This document shows positions 68 through 31,338 of a stretch of DNA of 64,000 nucleotides, in pieces. The first letter of the stretch is position 1. Every line of letters starts with the position of its first letter. Source of the DNA: Acidaminococcales bacterium (lineage in GTDB: Bacteria > Bacillota > Negativicutes > Acidaminococcales > JAISLQ01); assembly GCA_031552765.1 (NCBI GenBank), contig JAVBME010000005.1, forward strand, positions 9,328-73,327, written 5' to 3'. The position numbers and the translations under genes were made by a program. Under the pieces are notes generated by a model, which was not told where the DNA came from, made no database searches, and worked only from the letters and a program-made list of their open reading frames with translations.

Positions 68-1107
68 TGAAGATAAGTAAAGCCGACAGCATACTGGTCA
101 CTTTTCTCATGCAACTGGGAGACTTGGTACTTATCACGCCTTTTCTTACCGCGTTGCGCCGGGCGGCGCCGCAGGCAAAAATAACCTTGCTGATGGACGT
201 AAAGTGGCTGGAAATCATGGCGTCTAATCCAGATATAGATGAAATATTGCCGCTAGACCGCAAAGGCAAGGACAACAGCCTGGCCGCCCTGTGGAAATAC
301 CGCAGAAAACTGCAAAAAAGAAAATTTGACCTGGCGATAAACCTGAACCCCAGCGAACGCTGCTCATTTTTAGCGGCTTTCAGCGGCGCCAAATTCAAGA
401 CCGGAGCTACAAAAAGCTTGTTTGCGCCCTTTTATGACCGGCGGCTCAGATTAAACAGGAAACTGCATGCCGCGGATATGTATTTGGATATATTAGGGCA
501 GTTGGGCGTTGAGGACTTAGCTAACGACGGGTTAAAAGTAGTCCTTACGGAAGAATACAGGAAACAGGCGGCAGATTTTTTTACTGCCAAGGGTATAGTG
601 CCTGAAGATAAATTGATAGGTTTTAATATCGGCAGCGCCTCGGCCACCAAGTGCTGGCTGCCGGACAGGTTTGCCCAGGTAGCGGACGCTTTGGCAGCGG
701 ATGGTTATAAAACAGTTTTTTTTGGCAGTAAAGCGGAACTTGCCGTAGTAGAAAAAGCGGTAAGTCTTATGCACACCAAACCGGTTATCGCCACAGGGGC
801 GTTTGGTCTGGGCGGGCTTACCGCGGCCTTGGGGCGTATAGAGCTTTTGATAACCAACGACAGCGGGCCGATGCATTTGGCGGTCAGCCAAAAAACACCG
901 CTGGTAGCGCTGTATGGGCCGTCAAAACCCGAGCTGTACGGGCCTTATACACTTGACGGCGCAGCGGTGGTGAAGGCACAGCCGCCTTGTGAGAACTGCC
1001 TGGATCGTATGAAACATAAATGCGCCGATATGCGCTGTATGAATGACTTGACTGTAGCGCAAGTCATTGAAGCAGCTAACAAAATGCTGGCGAAAGGGAA
1101 AAAGTAA
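67..1107 (+). CDS. Glycosyltransferase family 9 (ADP-heptose:LPS heptosyltransferase-like)
   Basis: ORF 34..1107, with the likely start at ATG 67 (MKISKADSILV). It has the N-terminal LGDLVLITPFL and C-terminal ITNDSGPMHLA...PLVALYGPS motifs typical of GT9. Confidence 0.8.
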   Translation: MKISKADSILVTFLMQLGDLVLITPFLTALRRAAPQAKITLLMDVKWLEIMASNPDIDEILPLDRKGKDNSLAALWKYRRKLQKRKFDLAINLNPSERCSFLAAFSGAKFKTGATKSLFAPFYDRRLRLNRKLHAADMYLDILGQLGVEDLANDGLKVVLTEEYRKQAADFFTAKGIVPEDKLIGFNIGSASATKCWLPDRFAQVADALAADGYKTVFFGSKAELAVVEKAVSLMHTKPVIATGAFGLGGLTAALGRIELLITNDSGPMHLAVSQKTPLVALYGPSKPELYGPYTLDGAAVVKAQPPCENCLDRMKHKCADMRCMNDLTVAQVIEAANKMLAKGKK

Positions 1108-1871
1108 TGTCGCTGTGCGTGGTAATATTGACTTTTAATGAAGAGCAACATATAGAAGCCGCTGTAGAGTCCGCTAAAAAAGTGGCAGAGGAGATACTTG
1201 TCATTGATTCGGGCAGTTCGGACAAGACAGTGGTGTTGGCGGAAAAACACGGCGCCAGAGTGTTGTTTCGTCCCTGGGATGACGACTTTGCCGCAGCAAG
1301 GAATTTTGCTGATGACAAGACAGAGGCGCAGTGGTTGCTGCACCTTGATGCTGACGAGCGTATTTCCGACGAACTGGCCGACAGTATAAAAAAAGCTCTG
1401 CTAGGTAGTGAAAGAAAAATATATGCTTTTAAGCGCAGTAATAATGCTTTCGGCAAGGAATTCAAATATGGCGTTTTTCATCCTGATAGAGTAAGGCGCC
1501 TTTATCCGCGAGGAAAAGCCATATGGATAGGGAAGGTGCACGAAAGTATACAAAGTGATTTGCCGCGAGTATGCTTGTTTGGCAAGCTTGTGCATTATAC
1601 TTACTCCGATTGGGAACAATATTTTTATAAATTCAATAAATATACCAGCATATGGGCAAGGCAAGCTTATGATGCCGGGAAGAGTACTTCCATGGCAACA
1701 GCATTTGCTCATGCCGTCTTTGCTTTGATAAAAACCTTACTGTTACACGGTGGTTTTTTAGATGGTCTTATTGGTATAGCTACATGCTTTATGTATTTTA
1801 GTTATACCCTGGTAAAATATTTAAAACTTTACCAACTGCAGGTAGGCAGGGAGCGAGTATCAGCTGATTAA
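1107..1871 (+). CDS. Glycosyltransferase family 2 (LPS-core type, WaaE/KdtX-like)
   Basis: The ATG overlaps the upstream stop (TAATG 1105-1109). It has the N-terminal VVILTFNEE...IDSGSSDKT...LDADE GT-A signature. Confidence 0.75.
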   Translation: MSLCVVILTFNEEQHIEAAVESAKKVAEEILVIDSGSSDKTVVLAEKHGARVLFRPWDDDFAAARNFADDKTEAQWLLHLDADERISDELADSIKKALLGSERKIYAFKRSNNAFGKEFKYGVFHPDRVRRLYPRGKAIWIGKVHESIQSDLPRVCLFGKLVHYTYSDWEQYFYKFNKYTSIWARQAYDAGKSTSMATAFAHAVFALIKTLLLHGGFLDGLIGIATCFMYFSYTLVKYLKLYQLQVGRERVSAD

Positions 1872-2032
1872 GACATTTAAAAGCCCGCCCAATATCCATA
1901 CTTGAACAATCTAGCATTAATAGAGTGGTTTAGGCGCATACATGTGTATTACTGTTGCTAGGTAAAAACAGTAAGAAAACTTTTTGCTAGTCTAGAGCCT
2001 AATGAAAAAGTAAAGCAAAAGGGGGCCTTTTA

Positions 2033-3109
2033 TTGAATAGAGAATATAATACTATATTGGTACACTTGCTGGCTAATCTGGGAGATGTGGTTTTTGCGAC
2101 ATCTACGCTTTATTTGATAAGACAGAGGTATCCGAAAGCAAAGATAGTTTTTTTGGTTAGAACGGGCATTGCGGAAGTTTTTAAAAATCATTCGTGTATT
2201 GATGAGGTAATACCGTTTTCGTATACAAGTGGAGGCGATTATCTCTCTGTTTTTAAGGCAGCAAACTTAATTAAAAAATATAATTTTGACATGTCCATTT
2301 CGTTGGGGGGCAGGTTTAGAATAGATCTTTCAGTTTGGTTAGCGGGGATACCAGTACGTGTGGGAGCAGACCGAATATGGAACAATAGAAAAAGATGTCC
2401 CTCATATTTATATACACATACTATAAAGATGGGGGATTTGAAAAACAAGCCTATTTATCAGAGCTTCCAAAAGCTCTTTAATACTTTCATAAATGATACT
2501 AAGTCTAAAAATGATATCAGGCCTTTTGTCGGCAAAGCGCCAGAGGAAAACCTTCGGAAAGCGCACGAGCTACTGGCGGGACTTGCTAGACCTGGCGCCA
2601 TGAGTTTAGCTGTTTGCGTGAAAGCCGAACACTTGACAAAGAATTGGCAACCTGAAAGATTTGCGGAAGTTTTAGATATTATCTTAGAGAAATATGCAAT
2701 AAATGCATTTATTGTAGGGGTACAATCTGATAGGGCCTATGCCGAGGATATAATAAAAAACTGTAAGTATAAAGTAGAAAACTTGTGCGGCAAGACGTCA
2801 TTATTAGACTTGGTGGCATTGTTTGAACAAAGCGATATGTTGCTGTCTATTGATAATGGCTCGGCCCACCTTGCTGCGGCTACCGGACTGCCGGTAGTGT
2901 GCATTTGCATAGGTACAAGTCCGTTAACTATTCCTCCTACAGCGGAAGCGTTTTTGTGTGTTGGACGTGATAGATTGGCAGAATATACAGACTTGGCTTC
3001 TGATAAACAGGTAGATATAACTGTAGATGAAGTTTTGCGAGATATAGAAGACATTATCGCTTTTAGCAAAAATAAGCATCATAAGACTCATACAGGCAAA
3101 GGGGAGTAA
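2033..3109 (+). CDS. Glycosyltransferase family 9 (second heptosyltransferase-like paralog)
   Basis: TTG start preceded by AAGGGGG. It has the LLANLGDVVFATS N-terminal motif and the C-terminal IDNGSAHLAAATGLPVV motif. Confidence 0.8.
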   Translation: MNREYNTILVHLLANLGDVVFATSTLYLIRQRYPKAKIVFLVRTGIAEVFKNHSCIDEVIPFSYTSGGDYLSVFKAANLIKKYNFDMSISLGGRFRIDLSVWLAGIPVRVGADRIWNNRKRCPSYLYTHTIKMGDLKNKPIYQSFQKLFNTFINDTKSKNDIRPFVGKAPEENLRKAHELLAGLARPGAMSLAVCVKAEHLTKNWQPERFAEVLDIILEKYAINAFIVGVQSDRAYAEDIIKNCKYKVENLCGKTSLLDLVALFEQSDMLLSIDNGSAHLAAATGLPVVCICIGTSPLTIPPTAEAFLCVGRDRLAEYTDLASDKQVDITVDEVLRDIEDIIAFSKNKHHKTHTGKGE

Positions 3110-3112
3110 CGA

Positions 3113-4036
3113 GTGAATATTTCTATGGTTGTTTGCACATATAACCGTATTAAAATGTTAAAAGAGGCAATTAACTCTCTTCTTTGCCAATCAATAATAA
3201 ATGATCCGTCAATAAAATGGGAAGTTATAGTTGTAAACAATAATTCTGATGATGGCACAGAAGAATACCTCAAAGAACTTGCTAAAGAAAACCGTTTTGT
3301 AAAATATGTGCTAGAAACAAACCAGGGAATCGGTTATGCGCGTAATGCCGCATTAGAAAATGCGCAGTATGATATAATTGCTTATATAGATGATGATGAA
3401 ACGGCTGATGAAAACTGGGCTGCTGAAATGATAAGGGTATTTAAGGAGAATGATAATATCGGGTGTGTGTCAGGGCCATATTATCTGGAGGAGAAAGAGA
3501 AGATACCAACTTGGTTTCCTAAAGAAATGCATGGTATACTTGGCGATATTAACAATTATAGCGAGCAAAAAGATTATTTTGATTTGGGTAGAAAAGATTG
3601 CTATGCCGGAAATATGGCTATCAGCAAAAAAGTTGTTGAACATGGCTTGCGTTTTCCTTTATTGGGTCGAAAGAAAGATATTCTTTTGAACGGGGAAGAT
3701 ATATATATGGCTTTTAGCATATATGATGCTGGATTTAAAGTTTTTTATGCACCCAAGGCTAAAATCTACCATAAATTTATTCCAGCTCGCGCAACGGTAA
3801 ATTATGCGATAAAATCTTTTAAAGGGCTTGCTTACAGTAATGCAAAAAAGAATAAATTTTTTTACTATTTTTTTTGCTTGTTTTTAAGAACTCTAATATT
3901 TCCCTTTAGGGTTCTTTTAGATTATCGAAAACGGCTATATCACTTTGTTAGAATTTTTTATGAATATTATCGACTGAAAGCAAGCATGCAGATGATATTT
4001 GGTGATAATAACATTGGGTGCAATAAACTTCAATAA
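3113..4036 (+). CDS. Glycosyltransferase family 2
   Basis: GTG start after AAAGGGGAG. It has ISMVVCTYNR...VVNNNSDDGT...YIDDDE (GT-A, DxD). Confidence 0.75.
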   Translation: MNISMVVCTYNRIKMLKEAINSLLCQSIINDPSIKWEVIVVNNNSDDGTEEYLKELAKENRFVKYVLETNQGIGYARNAALENAQYDIIAYIDDDETADENWAAEMIRVFKENDNIGCVSGPYYLEEKEKIPTWFPKEMHGILGDINNYSEQKDYFDLGRKDCYAGNMAISKKVVEHGLRFPLLGRKKDILLNGEDIYMAFSIYDAGFKVFYAPKAKIYHKFIPARATVNYAIKSFKGLAYSNAKKNKFFYYFFCLFLRTLIFPFRVLLDYRKRLYHFVRIFYEYYRLKASMQMIFGDNNIGCNKLQ

Positions 4037-5372: not shown

Positions 5373-6791
5373 ATGGTCGATATCCACAAAAATGGCGTAG
5401 ATCTTAACAATAAAACCTTACAATGGCTTCCCTGGCTGGTAGCCATTTCTTTTTTTATGCAGATGTTTGACGGTACGGTGCTCAATACGGCTTTGCCGGC
5501 CATCGCTAAAAGTATGGGCGAGCCGACCCTGCGCTTGCAAAGCGCTATTATTGCCTACATGCTGACTGTGGCTATCTTTATACCCGCTTCCGGCTGGCTG
5601 GCCGACCGTTTTGGGACAAAGCGGCTTATGGCCTTTTCTATATCGCTGTTTACTTTTGGCTCTATATTATGTGCTATGTCGCCTAACCTCTTGTTGCTCA
5701 TCTTTTCCCGCATTGTCCAGGGCATTGGCGGCGCTTTGATGGTTCCGGTGGGGCGTTTGGCGGTATTGAAAGTCTATCCCCGTGAGCAGCTTATCAATGT
5801 GCTGAGCTTTGTTACCATGCCCGGCCTGGCGGGTTCTCTGTTGGGGCCGGCGGTTGGCGGCTTTTTGGTAGAATATGCGACATGGCATTGGATATTCCTT
5901 ATCAATATACCTATAGGAATTTGTGGCGTCTTGATGAACCGTCGCTATATGCCGGATTTGCGCTCGAAAAGCCTGGCTCCGTTTAGCTGGCGTGATTTCT
6001 CTTTATTCGCGCTTTCTCTTTTTCTTATCACACTGGCCCTTGAAGGGGTTGATGGTTTTGGCTTTTCCGCTTGGCTGTTTACTTTTATTATGGCCAGTGG
6101 CTTGTTCTGTCAGTTCATTTACTGGCATGTTTTTGCAAATGAGCCGGGAGCGCTCTTTAAAGCCGGCCTATTGAAGGCGGTGCGTTTTGTGATTGGCCTG
6201 TCGGCCGGTATATTTACGCGTATAGGTACTGGGGCCATACCTCTCTTGATACCGCTTTTCATGCAAATGGTGCTGGAGTTCTCTCCCCTGAAAACAGGCC
6301 TCTTGATGATACCGGCCGCTCTTACTTCCATAATGTGCAAACCCTTGGCTAATCCCTTAGTCAAACGTTTTGGTTTTAGAAAAATCCTTTTTGCCAATAC
6401 AGTGCTGCAAGGACTTTTCATTTCCAGCCTTTCCTTCTCGTCGGTACATTCTAACATACCGTTTATGTTGCTGCATCTGGGTTTGCTGGGCGGGGTTAAT
6501 TCCATTCAATTTACTGTGCTAAATACCTTTACCCTGTTTGACTTGGACAATGAAGACACATCCAGCGGCAATACGCTTTTGTCCGTAGTCATACAGATTT
6601 CACAAAGCCTTTCTCTAGGCATTGCCACTTTTGTTTTGTTTTTCTTCCTGGGACACAATTCCTATGCGGATATAATAGCCACCGAAAATGCTTTTCATTG
6701 GACTTTTACCGTACTTGGCCTTAGTTCGGTAGGATCGGCGGCTATCTTTTGGCTCGCGCCGCGCGATAAAGAAGAAAAAGCCCTCATTTGA
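5373..6791 (+). CDS. MFS transporter, DHA2 (EmrB/MdtD-like, 14-TMS type)
   Basis: Has the motif GWLADRFGTKR and FSRIVQGIGGALMVP. Length and hydrophobicity fit the DHA2 family. Confidence 0.8.
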   Translation: MVDIHKNGVDLNNKTLQWLPWLVAISFFMQMFDGTVLNTALPAIAKSMGEPTLRLQSAIIAYMLTVAIFIPASGWLADRFGTKRLMAFSISLFTFGSILCAMSPNLLLLIFSRIVQGIGGALMVPVGRLAVLKVYPREQLINVLSFVTMPGLAGSLLGPAVGGFLVEYATWHWIFLINIPIGICGVLMNRRYMPDLRSKSLAPFSWRDFSLFALSLFLITLALEGVDGFGFSAWLFTFIMASGLFCQFIYWHVFANEPGALFKAGLLKAVRFVIGLSAGIFTRIGTGAIPLLIPLFMQMVLEFSPLKTGLLMIPAALTSIMCKPLANPLVKRFGFRKILFANTVLQGLFISSLSFSSVHSNIPFMLLHLGLLGGVNSIQFTVLNTFTLFDLDNEDTSSGNTLLSVVIQISQSLSLGIATFVLFFFLGHNSYADIIATENAFHWTFTVLGLSSVGSAAIFWLAPRDKEEKALI

Positions 6792-7377
6792 GGGCTTTTT
6801 CTATAGCAGTAATAAGATGTGTTTTGAATATTTCTATGCCAATATTTTCGCTTCGTGTTTTAAGTCCGCTGCAAAGGGCAAAATCTTCTAACTGTTCTTT
6901 TGTAGTGGCTCGTACGCCGGTATCGCAAAAAAGAGCTTCATCACAGTACAGGCCAAATTTTTCCCTGAATACCGCTTTTTCATGGTCAGTTTTTGCTTCG
7001 TAAGCAAAAAAACGCCGCCAGTTGCAAAGCTCGCGCGGCGTAAGGAAAAAAGTCCGCGGCATGGCGCTTGTATCTATGCCTGTGATGGCGTGTATGCAAT
7101 TTATTTGATCTAGGAAAACGACAGGGTCTTTAGCGGTAAAAATTTGTAAGTCAGGGTGGCATTTGCAGCCGTAAAGCAATAGTATTTTATCAGCTTTGCT
7201 GTTACTTATAGCTGTGGATAGTTCGAGTTTTAGTGCCGAAAGATCTGTATGCAGCCTCTGATCCAGGTAAGATAGAGAAAAATTAGCATAGAACCGCCGG
7301 TCTTGATAAATTTGCTCCAATACCTTATCAAGTTCCAGTTGGAACGCTTCACAGGCCAGTATGTGTATTACACGCAT
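6784..7377 (-). CDS. DUF1638-like protein
   Basis: ORF 6784..7386; ATG 7377 has better AGAGGTG spacing. The pattern ILACE...LLLYGCKCHP...NCIHAITG...FFLTP resembles DUF1638, recalled from memory. Confidence 0.5.
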   Translation of the reverse strand: MRVIHILACEAFQLELDKVLEQIYQDRRFYANFSLSYLDQRLHTDLSALKLELSTAISNSKADKILLLYGCKCHPDLQIFTAKDPVVFLDQINCIHAITGIDTSAMPRTFFLTPRELCNWRRFFAYEAKTDHEKAVFREKFGLYCDEALFCDTGVRATTKEQLEDFALCSGLKTRSENIGIEIFKTHLITAIEKALK

Positions 7378-14861: not shown

Positions 14862-14998
14862 AAAAGCCTGCTTTGGAGGCAGGTTTTTGGTCATGCCTCT
14901 CATCTTCCAGGTAAAACCTGTAGGATTTGGCACCGGTACCAGGCGGGTCCGGTTGCCGGGCGTCATTGGGCCTATCCCTCCGCCGCTCTTGATAAGAG
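14862..14998 (-). promoter_or_regulatory. SAM-I (S-box) riboswitch with terminator
   Basis: Minus strand reads CTCTTATCAAGAGCGGCGGAGGGATAGGCCCAATGACGCCCGGCAACC...GGTGCCAAATCCTACAGG...GGAAGATGAGAGG. This is followed by the antiterminator pair GAGGCA/TGCCTC and the hairpin CCTGC-N7-GCAGG plus CT6. Confidence 0.92.
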
Positions 14999-15707: not shown

Positions 15708-15734
15708 ATAAATAATATAATAAACAAAAGCTAG

Positions 15735-16070
15735 GAACGGGAATAGTAGTTTTGCCAGCTTCTTTTAAGCGAACCGGCGGCCAGCATAGCTGGAGGTGCG
15801 ATGGCCGGTAAGAAGAGCAAAGTGAATGGCCCCGGGAGCTGTCCGCCGAAAGCTTTGCCAGTAGGCCGGAACGGATGCCGCCGTTAACAGGCTAGGATAT
15901 CGGCAGTTTTGCTTGTATCTGAAGAAAGGGAATGTATTTTCCAAATAAGGGTGGCAACACGAATCACTTCGTCCCTGGGGGCTAAGTGGTTTTTTATTTG
16001 GTAAAAACATTCCAAACAAGGGTGGTACCACGAACTGTTTCGTCCCTGGCGGAGCAGTTCTTTTATTTTT
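15735..16070 (+). promoter_or_regulatory. T-box leader (Trp specifier UGG) with two tandem antiterminator/terminator modules
   Basis: Stem I at about 15755-15841, with AGCGAA at 15768 and GGUGCGA at 15795. GAA-UGG-C has UGG at 15827-15829; AGUA is at 15860. T-box 1 spans 15944-15976 and ends in a U-run at 15990-15995. T-box 2 spans 16014-16047, with a hairpin at 16032-16060 and a U-run to 16070. Confidence 0.85.
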
Positions 16071-18615: not shown

Positions 18616-18705
18616 GGAGAGATGTCCGAGTGGTTGAAGGAGCACGCCTGGAAAGCGTGTGTAGTTGAAAGGCTACCGAGGGTTCGAATCCCTCTCTCTC
18701 CGCCA
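18616..18705 (+). tRNA. tRNA-Ser (anticodon GGA), CCA encoded
   Basis: Acceptor GGAGAGA/TCTCTCC, anticodon arm CACGC-CUGGAAA-GCGUG, a long variable arm, T arm GAGGG-TTCGAAT-CCCTC, then G-CCA. Confidence 0.95.
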
Positions 18706-18728
18706 TATAAAAATTAGTCGCCGAAGGC

Positions 18729-18888
18729 GCGGCTTTTGTTTTTTCTGTCGGGCCGCGGCGCTGGGTCTTGCGCAATGTGGACTCATGAACCCTGTCAGGT
18801 CCGGAAGGAAGCAGCAGTAAGTGATCATTCGCATGTGCCGCGAGGGCGCCTGGACTGCCGCGTCCCGACAGGCAAAACAAAGCCGCCA
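18729..18888 (+). ncRNA. ffs: SRP RNA (short form; helix 5/8 only), boundaries +/-15 nt
   Basis: Conserved core CCCUGUCAGGUCCGGAAGGAAGCAGC (18790-18815). The long closing helix pairs GCGGCUUUUGUUUUUUCUGUCGGGCCGCGGCG with CGCCGCGUCCCGACAGGCAAAACAAAGCCGC. Its position just upstream of dnaX matches Bacillus. Confidence 0.82.
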
Positions 18889-18901
18889 GAGGTATATTGC
18901 G

Positions 18902-21816: not shown

Positions 21817-22031
21817 TGTTTAAACCCGTAGATTTTATTTCGCTAAAATTAGACAAATGAGGTTGTGGGTATTTCAGATAAATGCTTACAAAGATATACT
21901 TGCCCAATCTTGCGAATAATAATGCGATTTAGTGGATTGAAAATACATAAATGTCGTTTTTTAATGAGGTACAGTACATACCCTTGTCGAAATAGTGTAG
22001 ATAAATACTGGTTTTTTTGCATGTCGTGCTC

Positions 22032-22060
22032 TTGCCAAACACCTAAAGTGAAAATATAAT
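22032..22060 (+). promoter_or_regulatory. Near-consensus sigma-A promoter
   Basis: TTGCCA (22032-22037), a 17-nt spacer, then TATAAT (22055-22060). Confidence 0.6.
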
Positions 22061-22067
22061 GATATTG

Positions 22068-22300
22068 AACAGATGCTTAGGTCCGTGGTTGAAAGTCGAT
22101 GCCAGTCGCAGGCGAAGCGATCCACGTAAGCAGCCAAAAATTAAGCTGTGAGCATAGTGCGGCCTAGAGGTAAGTCCTGCCGGCGAAAGCCGAGAGGGGA
22201 AGTAGTGGGGGGCTAAAGCCTAGTAGCGAAACTTCCGGCAGGCGAGTGTGGGGGAAAAGACCAGGTCGGCTAAGCAAATGTTTAATATAGGTGTACGGGG
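22068..22300 (+). ncRNA. Unclassified structured ~235-nt 5' leader / ncRNA candidate
   Basis: Hairpin at 22075-22131. A junction domain at 22176-22242 comprises CCUGC/GCAGG, a CGGC-GAAA-GCCG tetraloop hairpin at 22181-22192, and GGAAGU/ACUUCC. There are four G4-6 tracts and no terminator before ATG 22309. Confidence 0.45.
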
Positions 22301-22308
22301 GGATTATC

Positions 22309-22617
22309 ATGACATTCGAAGACAAAAACCTGAAATGTAAAGACTGTGGACAGGATTTTAACTTTACTGCCGGCGAGCAAGAGTTTTATAATGAAAAAGG
22401 CTTTGAAAATGAGCCTGTTCGCTGCAGGGAATGCCGCGATGCCAAAAAAAGAGAACGAGAAGTGCTTTTGGGAGGCCCCCAGCGGGAAATGTTTGAAACA
22501 ACTTGCTGTGAGTGCGGCAAAACCACTCTCATACCTTTTAAACCCAGGTATGAAAGGCCAATTTACTGCCGGGATTGTTTTGTTGCACAAAGGCTGAGGC
22601 TTGATACCGCCTTATGA
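22309..22617 (+). CDS. CxxC-x17-CxxC zinc-ribbon domain protein
   Basis: ATG 22309 follows GGGGGGA. There are two CxxC...CxxC units (CKDCG...CRECR and CCECG...CRDCF). Confidence 0.7.
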   Translation: MTFEDKNLKCKDCGQDFNFTAGEQEFYNEKGFENEPVRCRECRDAKKREREVLLGGPQREMFETTCCECGKTTLIPFKPRYERPIYCRDCFVAQRLRLDTAL

Positions 22618-22639
22618 CCTGCGGGCTATAAGGATTATG

Positions 22640-22663
22640 CGGTCGCGAAAGCGGCCGTTTTTT
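22640..22663 (+). terminator. Rho-independent terminator
   Basis: CGGTCGC-GAAA-GCGGCCG followed by T6. Confidence 0.78.
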
Positions 22664-22752
22664 ATTTGCCTATTTGTCGACTTGGCAAAATAATTCGCGT
22701 ATAATATATATAATATATTAGAAATAAACAGGTCAATCCGGGAGGTATTTAA

Positions 22753-26906: not shown

Positions 26907-27440
26907 ATGGCTATTACAGTACGCGGAAAAAACATTGAAGTTACGCCAGCGCTCCGGGATTATGTGGAAAAGAGGGTGAGCAAGGTCACGAAGTACTTTT
27001 CCGATGTCGGCGATATACACGCCGCTTTGGCAGTGGAAAAGGCCAAACATATCGTGGAGGTGACTGTACCGGTAAACGGGATATTGCTAAGGGCCCAGGA
27101 AATGACCGATGACATGTATACTTCTATAGATTTGGTCGTCGATAAGATAGAAAGACAGATCAGAAAATATAAGACCAAACTTATGAAAAGGTTCCGCAAT
27201 TCCGGCAATAACGGTTTTCGCAGTGAATTGGTGCCCGATCATCAGGCGGTCGAAGAAGAGCGCATAATCAAGACCAAGCGTTTTCCCATAAAGCCCATGA
27301 ACGCCGAAGAGGCGATAATGCAAATGAACCTTATACATCACGACTTTTTTGTGTATTTTGACGGCGATGAGGGGGCCATAAGCGTGGTGTACAGACGTAA
27401 AGACGGGGATTACGGACTGATAGCTCCGGAAATAAAATGA
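26907..27440 (+). CDS. hpf: Ribosome hibernation promoting factor (long HPF)
   Basis: MAITVRGKNIEVTPALRDYVEKR...C-terminal dimerisation domain RFPIKPM..EEAI.QMNL..HDFFVYF. SD is AAGGAGG. Confidence 0.93.
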   Translation: MAITVRGKNIEVTPALRDYVEKRVSKVTKYFSDVGDIHAALAVEKAKHIVEVTVPVNGILLRAQEMTDDMYTSIDLVVDKIERQIRKYKTKLMKRFRNSGNNGFRSELVPDHQAVEEERIIKTKRFPIKPMNAEEAIMQMNLIHHDFFVYFDGDEGAISVVYRRKDGDYGLIAPEIK

Positions 27441-27683: not shown

Positions 27684-30200
27684 ATGTTCGGCTTTGTGCA
27701 AAAGCTCTTTGGCGACCCCAACGAAAAAGAGTTGAAAAAGATCCAACCGTATGTTGATGAAATAAACAGCCTGGAAGCGGCTATGATGAGTATGAGCGAC
27801 GCCGCTCTGACCGGGAAGACTTGGGAGTTTAAGAGCCGCCTTGATAAAGGCGAAAAAATGCAGGATCTGCTGCCGGAAGCTTTCGCTGTGGTACGGGAAG
27901 CTTCGCGCCGCATACTCGGTATGCGGCATTTTGACGTACAGCTTATCGGCGGCGTAGCACTGCACGAAGGGAAAATAGCCGAAATGCGAACAGGTGAAGG
28001 CAAGACGCTTGTCGCTACTTTGCCTGTTTACCTCAATGCTTTGGCCGGCAAGGGCGTACATGTAGTTACGGTAAACGATTATCTGGCCAAGCGCGATAGC
28101 GAGTGGATGGGCAAGCTTTACCGTTTTTTAGGTTTGTCGGTGGGCCTGATAGTGCACGGTTTGGACTTTCCGCAGAGAAAGGCCGCTTATGCCGCTGATG
28201 TTACTTATGGTACGAACAATGAGTTTGGTTTTGACTATTTGCGCGACAATATGGTCATAAGCCCGGACCAGATGGTACAAAGAGAGCTCAATTACGCGAT
28301 CGTGGACGAAGTGGACAGCATACTTATCGACGAAGCCCGGACGCCGCTCATCATTTCCGGCCCCGGAGAAAAATCCACAGATATGTATAAAGTGCTGGCC
28401 CGTATAGTGCCTAATCTGACGCCGGGCGATGATTATACGGTAGACGAAAAAGCCCATACAGTGGCGCCGACAGAAAGCGGCATCGCCAAAGCGGAAAAAG
28501 CTTTGGGCGTAAAAAACCTCTATGAAGGGGAAAATGTCGAGCTGTCACACCATTTCAACCAGGCTTTGAAAGCCGAAGCGTTGATGCACAAAGATAAAGA
28601 CTATGTGGTAAAAGACGGCGAAGTCATTATAGTCGACGAATTTACCGGGCGTTTGATGTTTGGCCGTCGTTTCTCCGATGGCCTGCACCAGGCCATAGAA
28701 GCTAAGGAAGGCGTGCGGGTAGAGCGTGAGAGCCAGACTTTGGCGACCATAACGTTCCAGAATTATTTCCGCATGTTCAAAAAACTGGCCGGCATGACCG
28801 GCACGGCCAAGACTGAGGAGCCGGAGTTCCAGAAGATATACAAGCTGGATGTCCTGGTCATCCCAACCAATATGCCTAACCGGCGCGAGGATTTCCCGGA
28901 CGCCGTATATAAAAGCAAGAAAGCGAAATACCGCGCTGTTATAAAGGAAATCTGCGAGCTACATGCTACCGGCCAGCCGATACTTGTCGGCACGACTTCT
29001 ATCGTCCAGTCGGAAGAACTGTCTGAGATGCTAAAGCGCGCCGGTGTTGCGCATAATGTATTGAACGCAAAATACCATGAAAAAGAGGCGGAGATCATCT
29101 CCCTGGCCGGCCAGTTGAACGCTGTCACTATTGCCACCAATATGGCGGGCCGCGGCACGGATATCGTACTCGGGGAGACGGTGCCTGAATTGGGCGGTCT
29201 GCACATTATAGGCACGGAGCGGCACGAAAGCCGCCGTATAGATAACCAGTTGCGCGGGCGCAGCGGCCGGCAGGGCGACCGCGGTTCCAGCCGTTTTTAC
29301 CTGTCGCTGGAAGACGATTTGATGCGGCTTTTCGGTTCGGACAATATAGCCGGGATTATGGACAAGCTGGGTATGGAAGAAGATGAGCCGATAGAACACG
29401 CTATAGTCACAAAATCCATCGAATCGGCACAGAAAAAAGTTGAAAACCGCAACTTTGAAATAAGAAAACAGGTGCTGGAATATGACGACGTCATGAACCA
29501 GCAGCGCGAAGTTATTTATGCCCAGAGGCGCAAGATACTGCTGGAAAATGACTTGAAGCAGAACGTTATCGATATGATCGGGCGTTTGGTCAAACACACC
29601 ATGAACATGCACGCGCCGAAAGAGGTTTACCCCGAAGAGTGGAACCTGGCCGCGCTCATCGCTTACGCGGAAGAGTTTTACGCTCCCGATGGGGCGCTCG
29701 TGGAAGAAGAACTGGTCAAACTCAGCCGGGAAGAACTGGAAGAACTGCTGCAAAAAACCGCCCTGGAACATTATGCCGTCAGGGAAGCGGACATTGGCGC
29801 CCAGACGATGCGGGAGCTGGAAAAAGTCGTCATGCTCAGGGTAGTGGACGACAAGTGGATGGAACACCTTGACGCCATGGATATGCTGCGGGAAGGCATC
29901 GGCCTGAGGGCGTACGGGCAAAAAGACCCGCTGGTAGAATACAAAGTGGAAGCGTATGATATGTTCCAGGCGATGATAGAGGCTATGCAGGATGACATCG
30001 TACGCTATATGTATAGGGTGAGCATCGTGGCGAAGCCGGAAGTGTCCGACCACCTGCAACACGCCCAGGCGGTGCATGCCGGCGACAGCGTCGAGCCGCC
30101 TAAAAAGCAGCCGCTGGTGAAAAAGGAAGATATCGGGCGTAACGAGCCCTGTCCCTGCGGCAGCGGGAAAAAATACAAGCAGTGCTGTGGGCGTAATTAA
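27684..30200 (+). CDS. secA: Preprotein translocase ATPase SecA
   Basis: [28 protein letters not shown] and [10 protein letters not shown], with the C-terminal zinc motif [14 protein letters not shown]. Confidence 0.97.
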
Positions 30201-30227
30201 TCGTTTTAGTTTAGGGAGTTGATACAA

Positions 30228-31338
30228 GTGTTGATAGCGGAATATAAACCCGAGATACAAAGTTTGGCGGCCAAGTTAGAGGAAATGAGGGATTCACTTT
30301 GACGTCGCTAGAAAAAGCGAACGCATAGCCGAACTGGAGCATAAGATGAGCGCGCCCGGCTTTTGGGACGACCCGCAGGCCGCGCAAAAAATAACGCAGG
30401 AAACCACTGTACTGAAAGAGGAAATAGACACATGGCATAAACTGAAAAACCGCCTGGAAGATGTGGAAACGCTGTGGGAACTGGCGGTGGAAGAGGGAGA
30501 AGGCAGCCTGGAAGGCGAGATAAGCGAAGGTCTTTGTGGCATACGGGCCGACATAGAGCATCTTGAGCTCAATCTTTTGCTGAGCGGGGAATATGACGCT
30601 AATAACGCCATTTTGAATATCCACGCCGGCGCCGGCGGCACCGAAGCCCAGGACTGGGCCGAGATGCTGCTGCGCATGTATTCGCGTTACGGCGAGCGGG
30701 CCGGTTTTAAAGTAGAGATCATCGATTTGCAAGATGGCGACGAGGCGGGTATCAAGAGCGCTACTATCGGTATCAGCGGACACAATGCCTACGGTTATTT
30801 GAAATCGGAAAAAGGCGTCCACCGCCTGGTGCGTATATCGCCGTTTGACTCTAATGCCAGGCGGCATACTTCTTTTGCCGCGCTCGACGTCATGCCGGAA
30901 ATAGAAGACAATGTAGAGATAGAAATAAACCCTGTCGACCTCAAGGTAGATACCTTCCGGGCCAGCGGCGCCGGCGGACAGCATATCAATAAGACCGACT
31001 CGGCGGTCAGGATGACCCATATCCCGACAGGCATCATCGTGCAATGCCAAAACCAGCGTTCCCAGATACAAAACCGCGAACGTTGCATGCAGCTGCTCCG
31101 GGCCAAACTGTTCGAACTGGAACGCCAGAAAAAGGCCGACCTGCAAAACCAGATCGCCGGCGATTACCAGGCAATAGAGTGGGGCAGCCAGATACGTTCT
31201 TATGTTTTCCATCCCTATAACATGGTGAAAGACCACCGTACCAGTGTGGAAACAGGTAACGTACAGGCTGTGATGGACGGCAATCTCGACATATTTATCG
31301 AAGGCTATCTGAAAGACCTGCAAAACAAAAAAGCGTAG
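30228..31338 (+). CDS. prfB: Peptide chain release factor 2, with programmed +1 frameshift at 30297-30303
   Basis: Frame 0 runs from GTG 30228 to CTT (30297-30299) and TGA (30300-30302). Skipping T30300 continues GAC... into ORF 30346..31338. An SD-like AGGGA lies 4 nt upstream. SPF and GGQ motifs are present. Confidence 0.94.

Follow-up and report, generated by a model that had tools for sequence, protein, structure and literature searches.

A raiA-motif (ModT) RNA directly upstream of a zinc-ribbon gene in an Acidaminococcales genome and the recurrence of this arrangement in related bacteria

A 64,000-nt stretch of contig JAVBME010000005.1 from an Acidaminococcales bacterium (hereafter the window; positions are counted from its first letter) encodes on its forward strand, at 22072–22278, a raiA-motif RNA, also known as ModT, which is followed at a short distance by a gene for a small zinc-ribbon protein. 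The RNA is a member of a known family, and this assignment has very high confidence. With a probability of about 0.9, we regard the element as a trans-acting noncoding RNA (ncRNA) that lies on one transcript with the zinc-ribbon gene. Although the RNA family is known, its operon context with the zinc-ribbon gene is probably unreported. Comparison of loci suggests that a sizeable set of Firmicutes share a conserved two-part operon in which raiA/ModT RNA takes the place of the first "cistron", between a SigA promoter and a gene of the zf_Tbcl type that is followed by a terminator. The set includes Negativicutes such as Pelosinus, Acetonema, and Thermosinus, and Clostridia of gut, rumen, and digester origin such as Christensenellales and Caldicoprobacterales.

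Identity and fold of the RNA

The whole window was scanned against Rfam 15 at gathering thresholds, and positions 21900–22750 were rescanned permissively. The 207-nt segment at 22072–22278 (+) matches RF03072 (raiA RNA/ModT) with 187.1 bits, compared with a gathering score of 101.3 (E-value about 1e-49), and the match spans model positions 1–209 of 209 without truncation. In the permissive scan, no family other than RF03072 was found in 21900–22750 at E ≤ 1. The initial annotation, which was made from the sequence alone, had described the region as an unclassified leader without a known consensus, and had named an assignment to a known family by cmscan as grounds against that description. Such an assignment was obtained, and the description is therefore abandoned. 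Rather than founding a new class of riboswitch or small RNA, the RNA is a textbook-quality example of an Rfam family.

Folding of the single sequence provides little guidance here. The thermodynamic fold of 22068–22300 has a minimum free energy (MFE) of −71.2 kcal/mol and a z-score of −0.37, which is not above shuffled sequences. The MFE structure also reproduces a non-native 5′ hairpin from the initial annotation, and single-sequence folding is for this reason uninformative. The more-than-chance evidence for the RNA comes from the covariance model and from covariation.

The raiA motif was first described in 2017 (PMC5737381). Members of the family are highly structured, usually very abundant ncRNAs of about 200 nt in Bacillota and Actinomycetota. 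Strains that lack the RNA are impaired in sporulation, in aggregation, and in the shift to stationary phase, and supplying it in trans restores them; knock-outs complemented from a plasmid or an ectopic copy, made in Clostridium acetobutylicum and Clostridioides difficile, identify the RNA as trans-acting (PMC10861870, PMC11706538). No small-molecule binding was found in vitro (PMC5737381). Cryo-electron microscopy (cryo-EM) revealed a core of P3a/b, P4, and the pseudoknots PK1 and PK2, held by the conserved stem P1 (PMC12968392). Despite the wide spread and abundance of raiA/ModT, its biochemical job is unsettled in the literature.

Pairing and covariation were counted in an alignment (A4) of 69 distinct raiA RNAs, to which the fractions of paired cells below refer. 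As a control for pairing, the 3′ partners were slid by 1–3 columns; covariation was compared with 500 shuffles. The published cryo-EM-era fold is paired in 95.2% of cells, versus 32–44% in the slid controls. Changes on both sides are found in 30 pairs, and the covariation score is 0.387 versus 0.147 in the shuffles, with 0/500 shuffles scoring as high. The window sequence accommodates all helices of the revised model, and counting from 22072 gives the published numbering, including the G10 U11 bulge, G14, and G20 A21 A22 A23 (PMC12968392). The parts of the RNA are as follows.

22072–22278 (+): raiA-motif (ModT) RNA of the subtype without P2 and with a P6-P7-P8 junction, from the RF03072 covariance model
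22074–22080, 22083–22085, and 22086–22090 (+): 5′ strands of P1a, P1b, and P1c, from the pair list; partners at 22270–22276, 22267–22269, and 22259–22263 (3–9/199–205, 12–14/196–198, and 15–19/188–192 in RNA numbering)
22091–22094 (+): J1 GAAA junction, the GAA(A) tetraloop-like turn of P2-less raiA RNAs, numbered as in Ca-raiA (PMC12968392)
22095–22121 (+): P3 hairpin with P3a (22095–22098/22118–22121) and P3b (22101–22103/22111–22113), from covariation
22105–22110 (+): PK1 strand GUCGCA, paired with UGCGGC at 22158–22163, from covariation
22122–22125 (+): P4 strand CCAC, paired with GUGG at 22248–22251, assigned after cryo-EM (PMC12968392)
22130–22149 (+): P5 hairpin (22130–22134/22145–22149)
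22155–22156 (+): PK2 5′ strand U84 A85, partners at 22255–22256; U84-A185 is kept
22164–22173 (+): conserved 10-nt single-stranded linker CUAGAGGUAA ahead of P6, family consensus UUAGA(C/A)GUAA
22176–22242 (+): P6 (22176–22180/22238–22242), P7 with a GAAA loop (22181–22192), and P8 with an E-loop (22196–22235), from the Rfam alignment

The closing stem P1 has two bulges, GU at 22081–22082 (G10 U11) and GGU at 22264–22266 (G193 G194 U195), both of which match the cryo-EM structure (PMC12968392). P1a and P1b together have double-sided changes in seven of their ten pairs, with 89% of cells paired, and P1c is paired throughout (100%); P1a covaries, and P1b/c are invariant. In J1, G20, A22, and A23 are invariant, and A21 is replaced by C in a minority. 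P3a and P3b are separated by an A-rich asymmetric internal loop and are both 100% paired, with compensatory changes in two of the four P3a pairs (UA to CG in 24 sequences). The apical loop of P3 (22104–22110) donates PK1, which is paired in 99.8% of cells and has compensatory changes in three of six pairs. PK1 appears as a nested stem in the Rfam model; neither P3a nor PK1 is drawn as such there, yet both have compensatory changes. All four P4 pairs are invariant and 100% paired, and covariation is thus mute on this helix. P5 is compensatory in all five pairs (98.3% of cells paired). Compensatory changes also occur in P6, P7, and the base of P8, which are paired in 100%, 99.3%, and 97.1% of cells, respectively. 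P6 with the multi-stem P7/P8 and the E-loop defines the subtype that makes up 68% of the family, and the window RNA has it; the E-loop is formed by AGUA opposite GAA in P8, as described previously (PMC10861870, PMC12968392). Within the linker, A95, G96, U100, and A102 are invariant, as is G103 just 3′ of it, and this linker is the proposed KhpA-KhpB binding site of raiA RNA (PMC12968392).

The complementary segments listed in the initial annotation are all present in the sequence, and several of them are genuine helices of the family structure: CCUGC/GCAGG is P6, CGGC-GAAA-GCCG is P7, and GGC-UAAA-GCC is the tip of P8. The pairing of GCUUAG with CUAAGC at 22270–22275 is real as well, but it had been taken for an alternative to a 5′ hairpin, and it is in fact the closing stem P1a. 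The 5′ hairpin itself did not hold up. Its GCUUA/UAAGC arm is paired in 54.5% of cells in the 69 homologues, no better than shuffles, and its CGUGG/CCACG arm would pair strands that are both invariant and that belong, according to the family model and cryo-EM, to P1b/c and P4 (PMC12968392). The GGAAGU/ACUUCC register proposed for P8 fails in the same way (57.9% of cells paired, no better than shuffles); in the register of the family, AGUA/GAA form the E-loop.

Two further features of the fold were observed. The segments GUGG at 22085–22088 (P1b/c), CCAC at 22122–22125, and GUGG at 22248–22251 (both P4) are invariant in all 69 RNAs, and the first GUGG and the CCAC are perfectly complementary in 100% of cells. 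This alternative pairing forms first during transcription and may be a folding intermediate. In addition, P1 can be extended past a 2 × 2 internal loop by 5 bp (22067–22071 with 22279–22283). Pairing just beyond the Rfam boundary is 0.60 versus about 0.375 by chance (63 loci), and this lengthening of P1 may have a role in processing.

The RNA–zinc-ribbon unit in the window and its relatives

The RNA is framed by a promoter on one side and by the zinc-ribbon gene and a terminator on the other.

22032–22037 (+): −35 hexamer TTGCCA of the raiA RNA promoter, from a consensus scan, with a 17-nt spacer to the −10 hexamer
22055–22060 (+): −10 hexamer TATAAT, from the same scan, at a position conserved in relatives
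22279–22308 (+): 30-nt spacer between the RNA end and ATG 22309, with the Shine-Dalgarno (SD) G-run at 22297–22302
22309–22617 (+): gene for a 102-aa double treble-clef zinc-ribbon protein (zf_Tbcl + zf_Tbcl_2, from Pfam), probably co-transcribed with the RNA
22639–22668 (+): intrinsic terminator with an 8-bp stem (six GC pairs), a GAAA loop, and a T-run, from a terminator scan; it would close the predicted unit of RNA and zinc-ribbon gene

The promoter (TTGCCA-17-TATAAT, 22032–22060) had been pointed out in the initial annotation and agrees with the consensus at 11 of 12 positions. Judging from the usual distance of 7–8 nt from the −10 hexamer, transcription would start at about 22067–22068, approximately 5 nt before P1. 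A SigA promoter has been described for modT in four clostridia (PMC11706538). The pattern TTGnnn-17-TATAAT is found at an equal distance 5′ of the RNA in nine other aligned Negativicutes loci, and just before P1 in all 68 metagenomic loci with enough upstream sequence. No terminator-like site was found between 22068 and 22309 by the terminator scan, and no usable separate promoter directly before the zinc-ribbon open reading frame (ORF) by the promoter scan. The ORF list and the terminator scan agree with the earlier account of about 235 noncoding nt without a terminator before ATG 22309, and the greater GC content of this region is also borne out (0.56 in 22072–22278 vs. 0.32 in the upstream spacer 21817–22067). 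The earlier proposal that the promoter reads through the RNA into the zinc-ribbon gene is supported by the comparative data given below.

The zinc-ribbon protein matches Pfam families PF13451 (E-value 4.5e-22) and PF23477 (E-value 2.3e-16), and residues 59–95 match NCBIfam TIGR04272; the C-terminal module is the CxxC-x17-CxxC domain. An AlphaFold2 model based on 65 homologues (pLDDT 87.7) has two zinc modules, each a beta-hairpin plus helix, joined by a basic flexible linker. Treble-clef or zinc-ribbon modules on a basic linker are common nucleic-acid binders. A sequence search of the PDB with this protein returned only spurious matches to C2H2 repeats, and a Foldseek search of the model against the PDB gave no significant match (best E-value 0.41). 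Small archaeal proteins with the CxxC-x17-CxxC pattern bind zinc, and their role is unassigned (PMC12704099).

A search of a genome collection with the zinc-ribbon protein yielded 54 loci. The 11 closest orthologues (67–73% identity) belong to Pelosinus spp. and uncultured Negativicutes/Bacillota, and Negativicutes is a class known to carry raiA RNA. In 10 of these 11 loci, a full raiA RNA (186–190 bits) ends about 40 nt before the start codon of the zinc-ribbon gene. In the eleventh, about 130 nt are missing from the interior of the RNA. In this locus (L003 3800–4003, metagenome-assembled genome [MAG] CTSoil_073 of Bacillota), the deletion runs from just past the GAAA junction to mid-P8, and the flanks are nearly identical to those of locus L002; genuine decay of the RNA or an artefact of MAG assembly would account for it. 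Thermosinus carboxydivorans and Acetonema longum share the order fliD-fliS-...-raiA RNA-zinc-ribbon gene-binding protein...-csp-hpf, and in both a full raiA RNA likewise stops about 40 nt short of the zinc-ribbon start codon. Across the Negativicutes relatives, the distance of the promoter is constant, and the spacer contains nothing but the SD sequence. The upstream gene varies, being bofA in the window, flagellar in Thermosinus and Acetonema, a sugar/glycosyltransferase gene in Pelosinus, and in one case a divergent GGDEF-EAL gene.

Metagenomes were scanned with a pattern that requires the raiA 3′ core followed by CxDCG codons 55–85 nt further on, and the resulting set is thus selected for the pair. 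At least 120 metagenomic stretches match this linked pattern, and 80 were fetched. A protein of the zf_Tbcl type, about 90 aa long, is encoded in all 80, and its ORF starts 28–45 nt after P1. Homology to raiA RNA was detected by nhmmer in 79, and the remaining contig starts inside the RNA. A terminator-like site occurs in the spacer between RNA and gene in none of the 80 loci. By comparison, such a site is present within 120 nt after the zinc-ribbon gene in 39 of 72 loci (54%), versus 20 of 305 control windows (6.6%). The flanking genes are highly diverse. Counted over 54 metagenomic loci, the genes upstream fall into 29 Pfam families, with DUF436 at 14 loci and a ComFC-like phosphoribosyltransferase at five; the next genes downstream fall into 31, with Hpf at only two. 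Identical proteins at NCBI are named as Christensenellaceae, Ca. Limiplasma, Ca. Pelethousia, Caldicoprobacterales, and unclassified Clostridia, and several of these proteins are found on 1,000 or more contigs each. The layout of promoter, RNA, zinc-ribbon gene, and terminator is present in two classes, Negativicutes and Clostridia, and the geometry of RNA and ORF is kept in more than 90 loci.

The novelty lies in this recurrent, terminator-less RNA–zinc-ribbon unit, found in two classes among unrelated flanks, which appears to be unreported. In the searchable literature, the scope of which leaves aside the neighbourhood supplementary tables of Soares 2024 and Weinberg 2017, no paper was found that links zf_Tbcl, CxxC-x17-CxxC, or a zinc ribbon with raiA/ModT. 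Published neighbourhood analyses found synteny to be no good clue and gave no strong candidate for a protein partner of raiA RNA; in these surveys, hpf directly follows the RNA in 66% of annotated genomes, and genes at <10% of loci were pooled as "other" (PMC10861870). Small ORFs beside structured RNAs can escape neighbourhood surveys, which calls for caution. If the unit is real, it could help to account for earlier survey reports of "hundreds of nucleotides" between the RNA and the annotated gene that follows; in the window, about 470 nt separate the RNA end from the start of the gene that comes after the zinc-ribbon ORF.

The link between RNA and gene has its limits. In Selenomonas ruminantium and Propionispira raffinosivorans, the zinc-ribbon gene occupies the same locus (zinc-ribbon gene-binding protein...-csp-hpf-secA) without the RNA. 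At the Propionispira locus (L183 3860–4003), the promoter, the first approximately 25 nt of raiA, and the SD/ATG block can be aligned, and the body of the RNA is lost, indicating that the raiA promoter is the promoter of the zinc-ribbon gene and that the gene was retained when the RNA was lost. The Selenomonas locus (L181 3850–4003) has the same type of promoter with an unrelated 100-nt leader. The two loci represent natural deletion derivatives of the raiA–zinc-ribbon unit. No raiA RNA was found within 4 kb of more distant orthologues of the gene in Clostridiales, Oscillospiraceae, and Syntrophomonadaceae, and nhmmer found no raiA homology at the zinc-ribbon paralogue of Pelosinus. Homologues of zf_Tbcl without nearby raiA RNA also occur in Patescibacteria, Gastranaerophilales, and Planctomycetota, and the protein family reaches phyla without raiA RNA. 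In the other direction, the raiA RNA of Acetoanaerobium noterae (178 bits), the sole fetched case chosen without regard to the gene, has no zinc-ribbon gene downstream. Viral contigs were also scanned for a raiA core pattern to obtain an unbiased sample, and the single match was a chance one that is not raiA RNA.

The zinc-ribbon family has other settings as well. Genes of the zf_Tbcl type were found on Clostridium perfringens plasmids of about 13 kb (NZ_CP023411.1, NZ_CP046518.1, and NZ_CP148697.1) and on a phage-like contig from human faeces (MT837064.1, "Bacteriophage sp."), suggesting that the gene family is mobile and not tied to raiA RNA. In several Clostridia MAGs, a conserved element of about 63 nt precedes zinc-ribbon genes that lack raiA RNA (L018 3900–3962 and L035 3907–3971), and the same type of element lies about 35–45 nt upstream of zf_Tbcl genes in L013, L014, L015, L017, L019, and L020. 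Rfam scores of 36.5 and 31.5 bits class this element as tRNA. It has an acceptor, a D, and a T arm, and its anticodon arm is reduced to a 3-bp stub; ARAGORN, run on the zinc-ribbon loci, called no tRNA at these tRNA-like leaders. Real tRNAs are located 130–330 nt upstream of the gene in a Patescibacteria locus (L038) and in Subdoligranulum variabile (L186). Genes of the zf_Tbcl type seem to be placed habitually behind stable structured RNAs.

Proposed mode of action and alternative explanations

Under the reading proposed here, the RNA would be made from its own SigA-type promoter (22032–22060) and would fold into P1a–c, the compact P3a/b-P4-PK1-PK2 core, the peripheral P5, and the P6-P7-P8 junction. 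Read-through into the zinc-ribbon gene is most likely because no terminator follows the RNA. Comparison with related loci suggests a primary transcript that runs through the RNA, the 30-nt spacer, and the zinc-ribbon gene to the terminator, a total of about 600 nt. The stable RNA of about 210 nt would be the structured 5′ part of this transcript, either released by processing or left after it, and the zinc-ribbon gene would depend on the promoter of the RNA. The RNA would then act in trans, probably as a ribonucleoprotein (RNP), in the stationary-phase transition, sporulation, and aggregation, as carried over from C. acetobutylicum and C. difficile. The raiA–zinc-ribbon unit offers a natural system for studying how the mature 3′ end of the RNA arises.

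A comparable layout is found in the ssrS-ygfA operon of Escherichia coli, in which 6S RNA, an abundant, stable, and structured trans-acting RNA, is the 5′ part of a transcript that includes a protein gene. As in that operon, the mature raiA RNA would need to be released by processing. The RNA family and the protein are different, and the processing and co-transcription of the raiA–zinc-ribbon pair are predictions. Another parallel is OLE RNA with oapA and other genes, also a large conserved Firmicutes ncRNA beside a small protein gene, the neighbourhood of which revealed its RNP partners (PMC10861870). Unlike the present case, the OLE partnership has been demonstrated experimentally and its protein co-occurs with the RNA, whereas the zinc-ribbon family is far wider than raiA RNA and survives its loss. 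Compared with the raiA/ModT RNAs studied so far (PMC5737381, PMC10861870, PMC11706538, PMC12968392), the window RNA has the same helices, pseudoknot PK1, bulges, GAA(A) junction, linker, and E-loop. A SigA-type promoter directly upstream, a Bacillota host, and downstream genes for hpf/raiA, secA, prfB, and the binding protein of an ATP-binding cassette (ABC) transporter are shared as well. It differs in the lack of a terminator of its own, in the zinc-ribbon ORF 30 nt after P1, in having bofA rather than comFC upstream, in the 4.6-kb distance to hpf, and in an A/A combination in PK2.

Several points weigh against the reading of a trans-acting ncRNA on a shared transcript. The Rfam type label of RF03072 is "Cis-reg; riboswitch". 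The start site, 3′ end, processing, and abundance of the RNA at this locus are sequence-based predictions. The C. acetobutylicum raiA RNA has its own terminator and that of C. difficile has two termination sites, and the arrangement in the window differs from both. The phenotypes from which its function would be extrapolated come from Clostridia, not Negativicutes. Finally, one PK2 pair is G-C in 66 of the 69 homologues, and the window has A85/A184 (22156/22255), with both partners changed, making it one of three exceptions. The neighbouring U84-A185 pair is U-A in all 69. The A/A combination may be a tolerated non-canonical pair or may weaken the pseudoknot, and the full tertiary integrity of the window RNA is not certain.

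The initial annotation had left the choice between a cis-regulatory leader, sensing a ligand, a protein, or temperature, and an independent ncRNA. The second option is borne out, and the first found no support. A riboswitch, thermosensor, or protein-binding attenuator that controls the zinc-ribbon gene would fit the position of the RNA (30 nt ahead of the ORF, co-oriented with it, and without an intervening terminator), the conservation of this geometry in more than 90 loci, and the Rfam type label. The window itself contains leaders of this kind, a SAM riboswitch at 14897–14998 (−) and a T-box leader at 15724–15979 (+), which likewise are structured RNAs between a promoter and a same-strand ORF. 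Unlike these leaders, raiA RNA has no expression platform or known ligand, is complemented in trans, and precedes varied genes. No terminator-like site was found in any of the 80 spacers, and neither the window nor the related spacers have a conserved hairpin over the SD sequence; the spacers fold weakly and differently, and P1 closes the fold before the spacer begins. Placement before the zinc-ribbon gene is consistent within the subset linked to this gene, whereas family-wide the RNA precedes varied genes at varied distances and orientations (PMC10861870), is often distant from or opposite to the next gene, and in most cases is followed by unrelated genes. No tested ligand was bound, and knock-outs were rescued in trans (PMC5737381, PMC10861870, PMC11706538, PMC12968392). 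Control of the zinc-ribbon gene in cis is thus very improbable.

Four G-runs of 4–6 nt on the transcribed strand within about 105 nt (22196–22199, 22207–22212, 22250–22254, and 22297–22302) had been noted in the initial annotation, which correctly placed all four and took the last as the SD sequence. An RNA G-quadruplex formed by these tracts and regulating the downstream gene can practically be dismissed. The tracts are spaced by 7, 37, and 42 nt. The first is the base of P8, the second is upper P8 including its tip pairs, and the third is the P4 3′ strand with the PK2 linker; all three lie at invariant or covarying positions of the fold, and the fourth is the SD sequence. The P8 tracts are not kept as G-runs in homologues. 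The quadruplex was rejected, as the tracts are structural parts of a known fold.

A less remote, though still unlikely, proposal is that the zinc-ribbon protein works with raiA RNA as a functional partner, whether within one RNP or through a shared growth-transition pathway. The pair stays joined while the flanks change completely in the 54 loci counted above, and it does so in two classes; the joined zinc modules on a basic linker also belong to a frequent type of nucleic-acid binder. In addition, no strong neighbourhood partner has been published (PMC10861870), and KhpA/B bind raiA RNA only at about 2 µM (PMC12968392). Against this, the metagenomic set was selected for the pair and does not give the share of the pair among raiA RNAs, and the RNA-selected case, A. 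noterae, lacks the gene downstream. The published surveys have hpf, not this gene, as the common downstream neighbour. Propionispira and Selenomonas keep the gene at the locus after RNA loss, and close homologues without raiA RNA nearby exist in many groups, on plasmids, and on the phage-like contig. The PDB and Foldseek searches gave no structural or sequence match that points to RNA binding. If the zinc-ribbon gene has no promoter of its own, this dependence alone would preserve the adjacency. A partnership between RNA and protein is possible, and promoter sharing alone would also hold the pair together. If true, the partnership would be the first specific protein handle on the mechanism of raiA RNA; if the link is promoter sharing only, its value is modest.

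Genomic neighbourhood of the unit

Upstream of the RNA, the window contains a tRNA, the signal recognition particle (SRP) RNA, dnaX, ybaB, recR, and bofA. The host is probably a spore-former, given the presence of bofA. Downstream, the zinc-ribbon gene and the terminator are followed by genes for an M20 peptidase, an amino-acid ABC transporter (binding protein, permease, and ATPase), a cold-shock protein, Hpf/RaiA, SecA, and PrfB. The last three were located as follows.

26907–27440 (+): hpf/raiA, the ribosome hibernation factor gene that is the namesake of the RNA, 4.6 kb downstream of it (Pfam Ribosomal_S30AE and S30AE_C)
27684–30200 (+): secA (SecA domains)
30346–31338 (+): prfB (PCRF/RF-1 domains)

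The order hpf-secA-prfB is also found in Acetonema and Propionispira. Association of raiA RNA with raiA, secA, and prfB has been published (PMC10861870), as have ABC transporter and periplasmic binding protein neighbours (PMC10861870, PMC5737381). Downstream of the RNA, the window thus has the published raiA neighbourhood, stretched by 4.6 kb; upstream, recR-bofA replaces comFC or flagellar genes. The prfB ORF, listed as 30211–31338, begins at position 12 of the PCRF profile and is preceded by a gap after secA, a pattern that fits the programmed +1 frameshift typical of release factor 2.

Two observations concern the Negativicutes MAG locus L002. A 993-aa GGDEF-EAL protein is encoded at 225–3206 (−), divergently from the raiA promoter, in this MAG only. 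Loss of ModT raises cyclic di-GMP in C. difficile (PMC11706538). A match to the cspA thermoregulator family at 6748–7163 is barely at threshold (78.4 vs. 78 bits) and sits where a csp leader is expected from the related gene order (csp, then hpf); the Rfam scan of the window found no such match at threshold.

The further Rfam matches in the window are the SAM riboswitch and the T-box leader mentioned above. In addition, the 3′ end of an 87-nt tRNA (18616–18702, +) overlaps the call for the large SRP RNA (18690–18893, +) by 13 nt, just upstream of dnaX.

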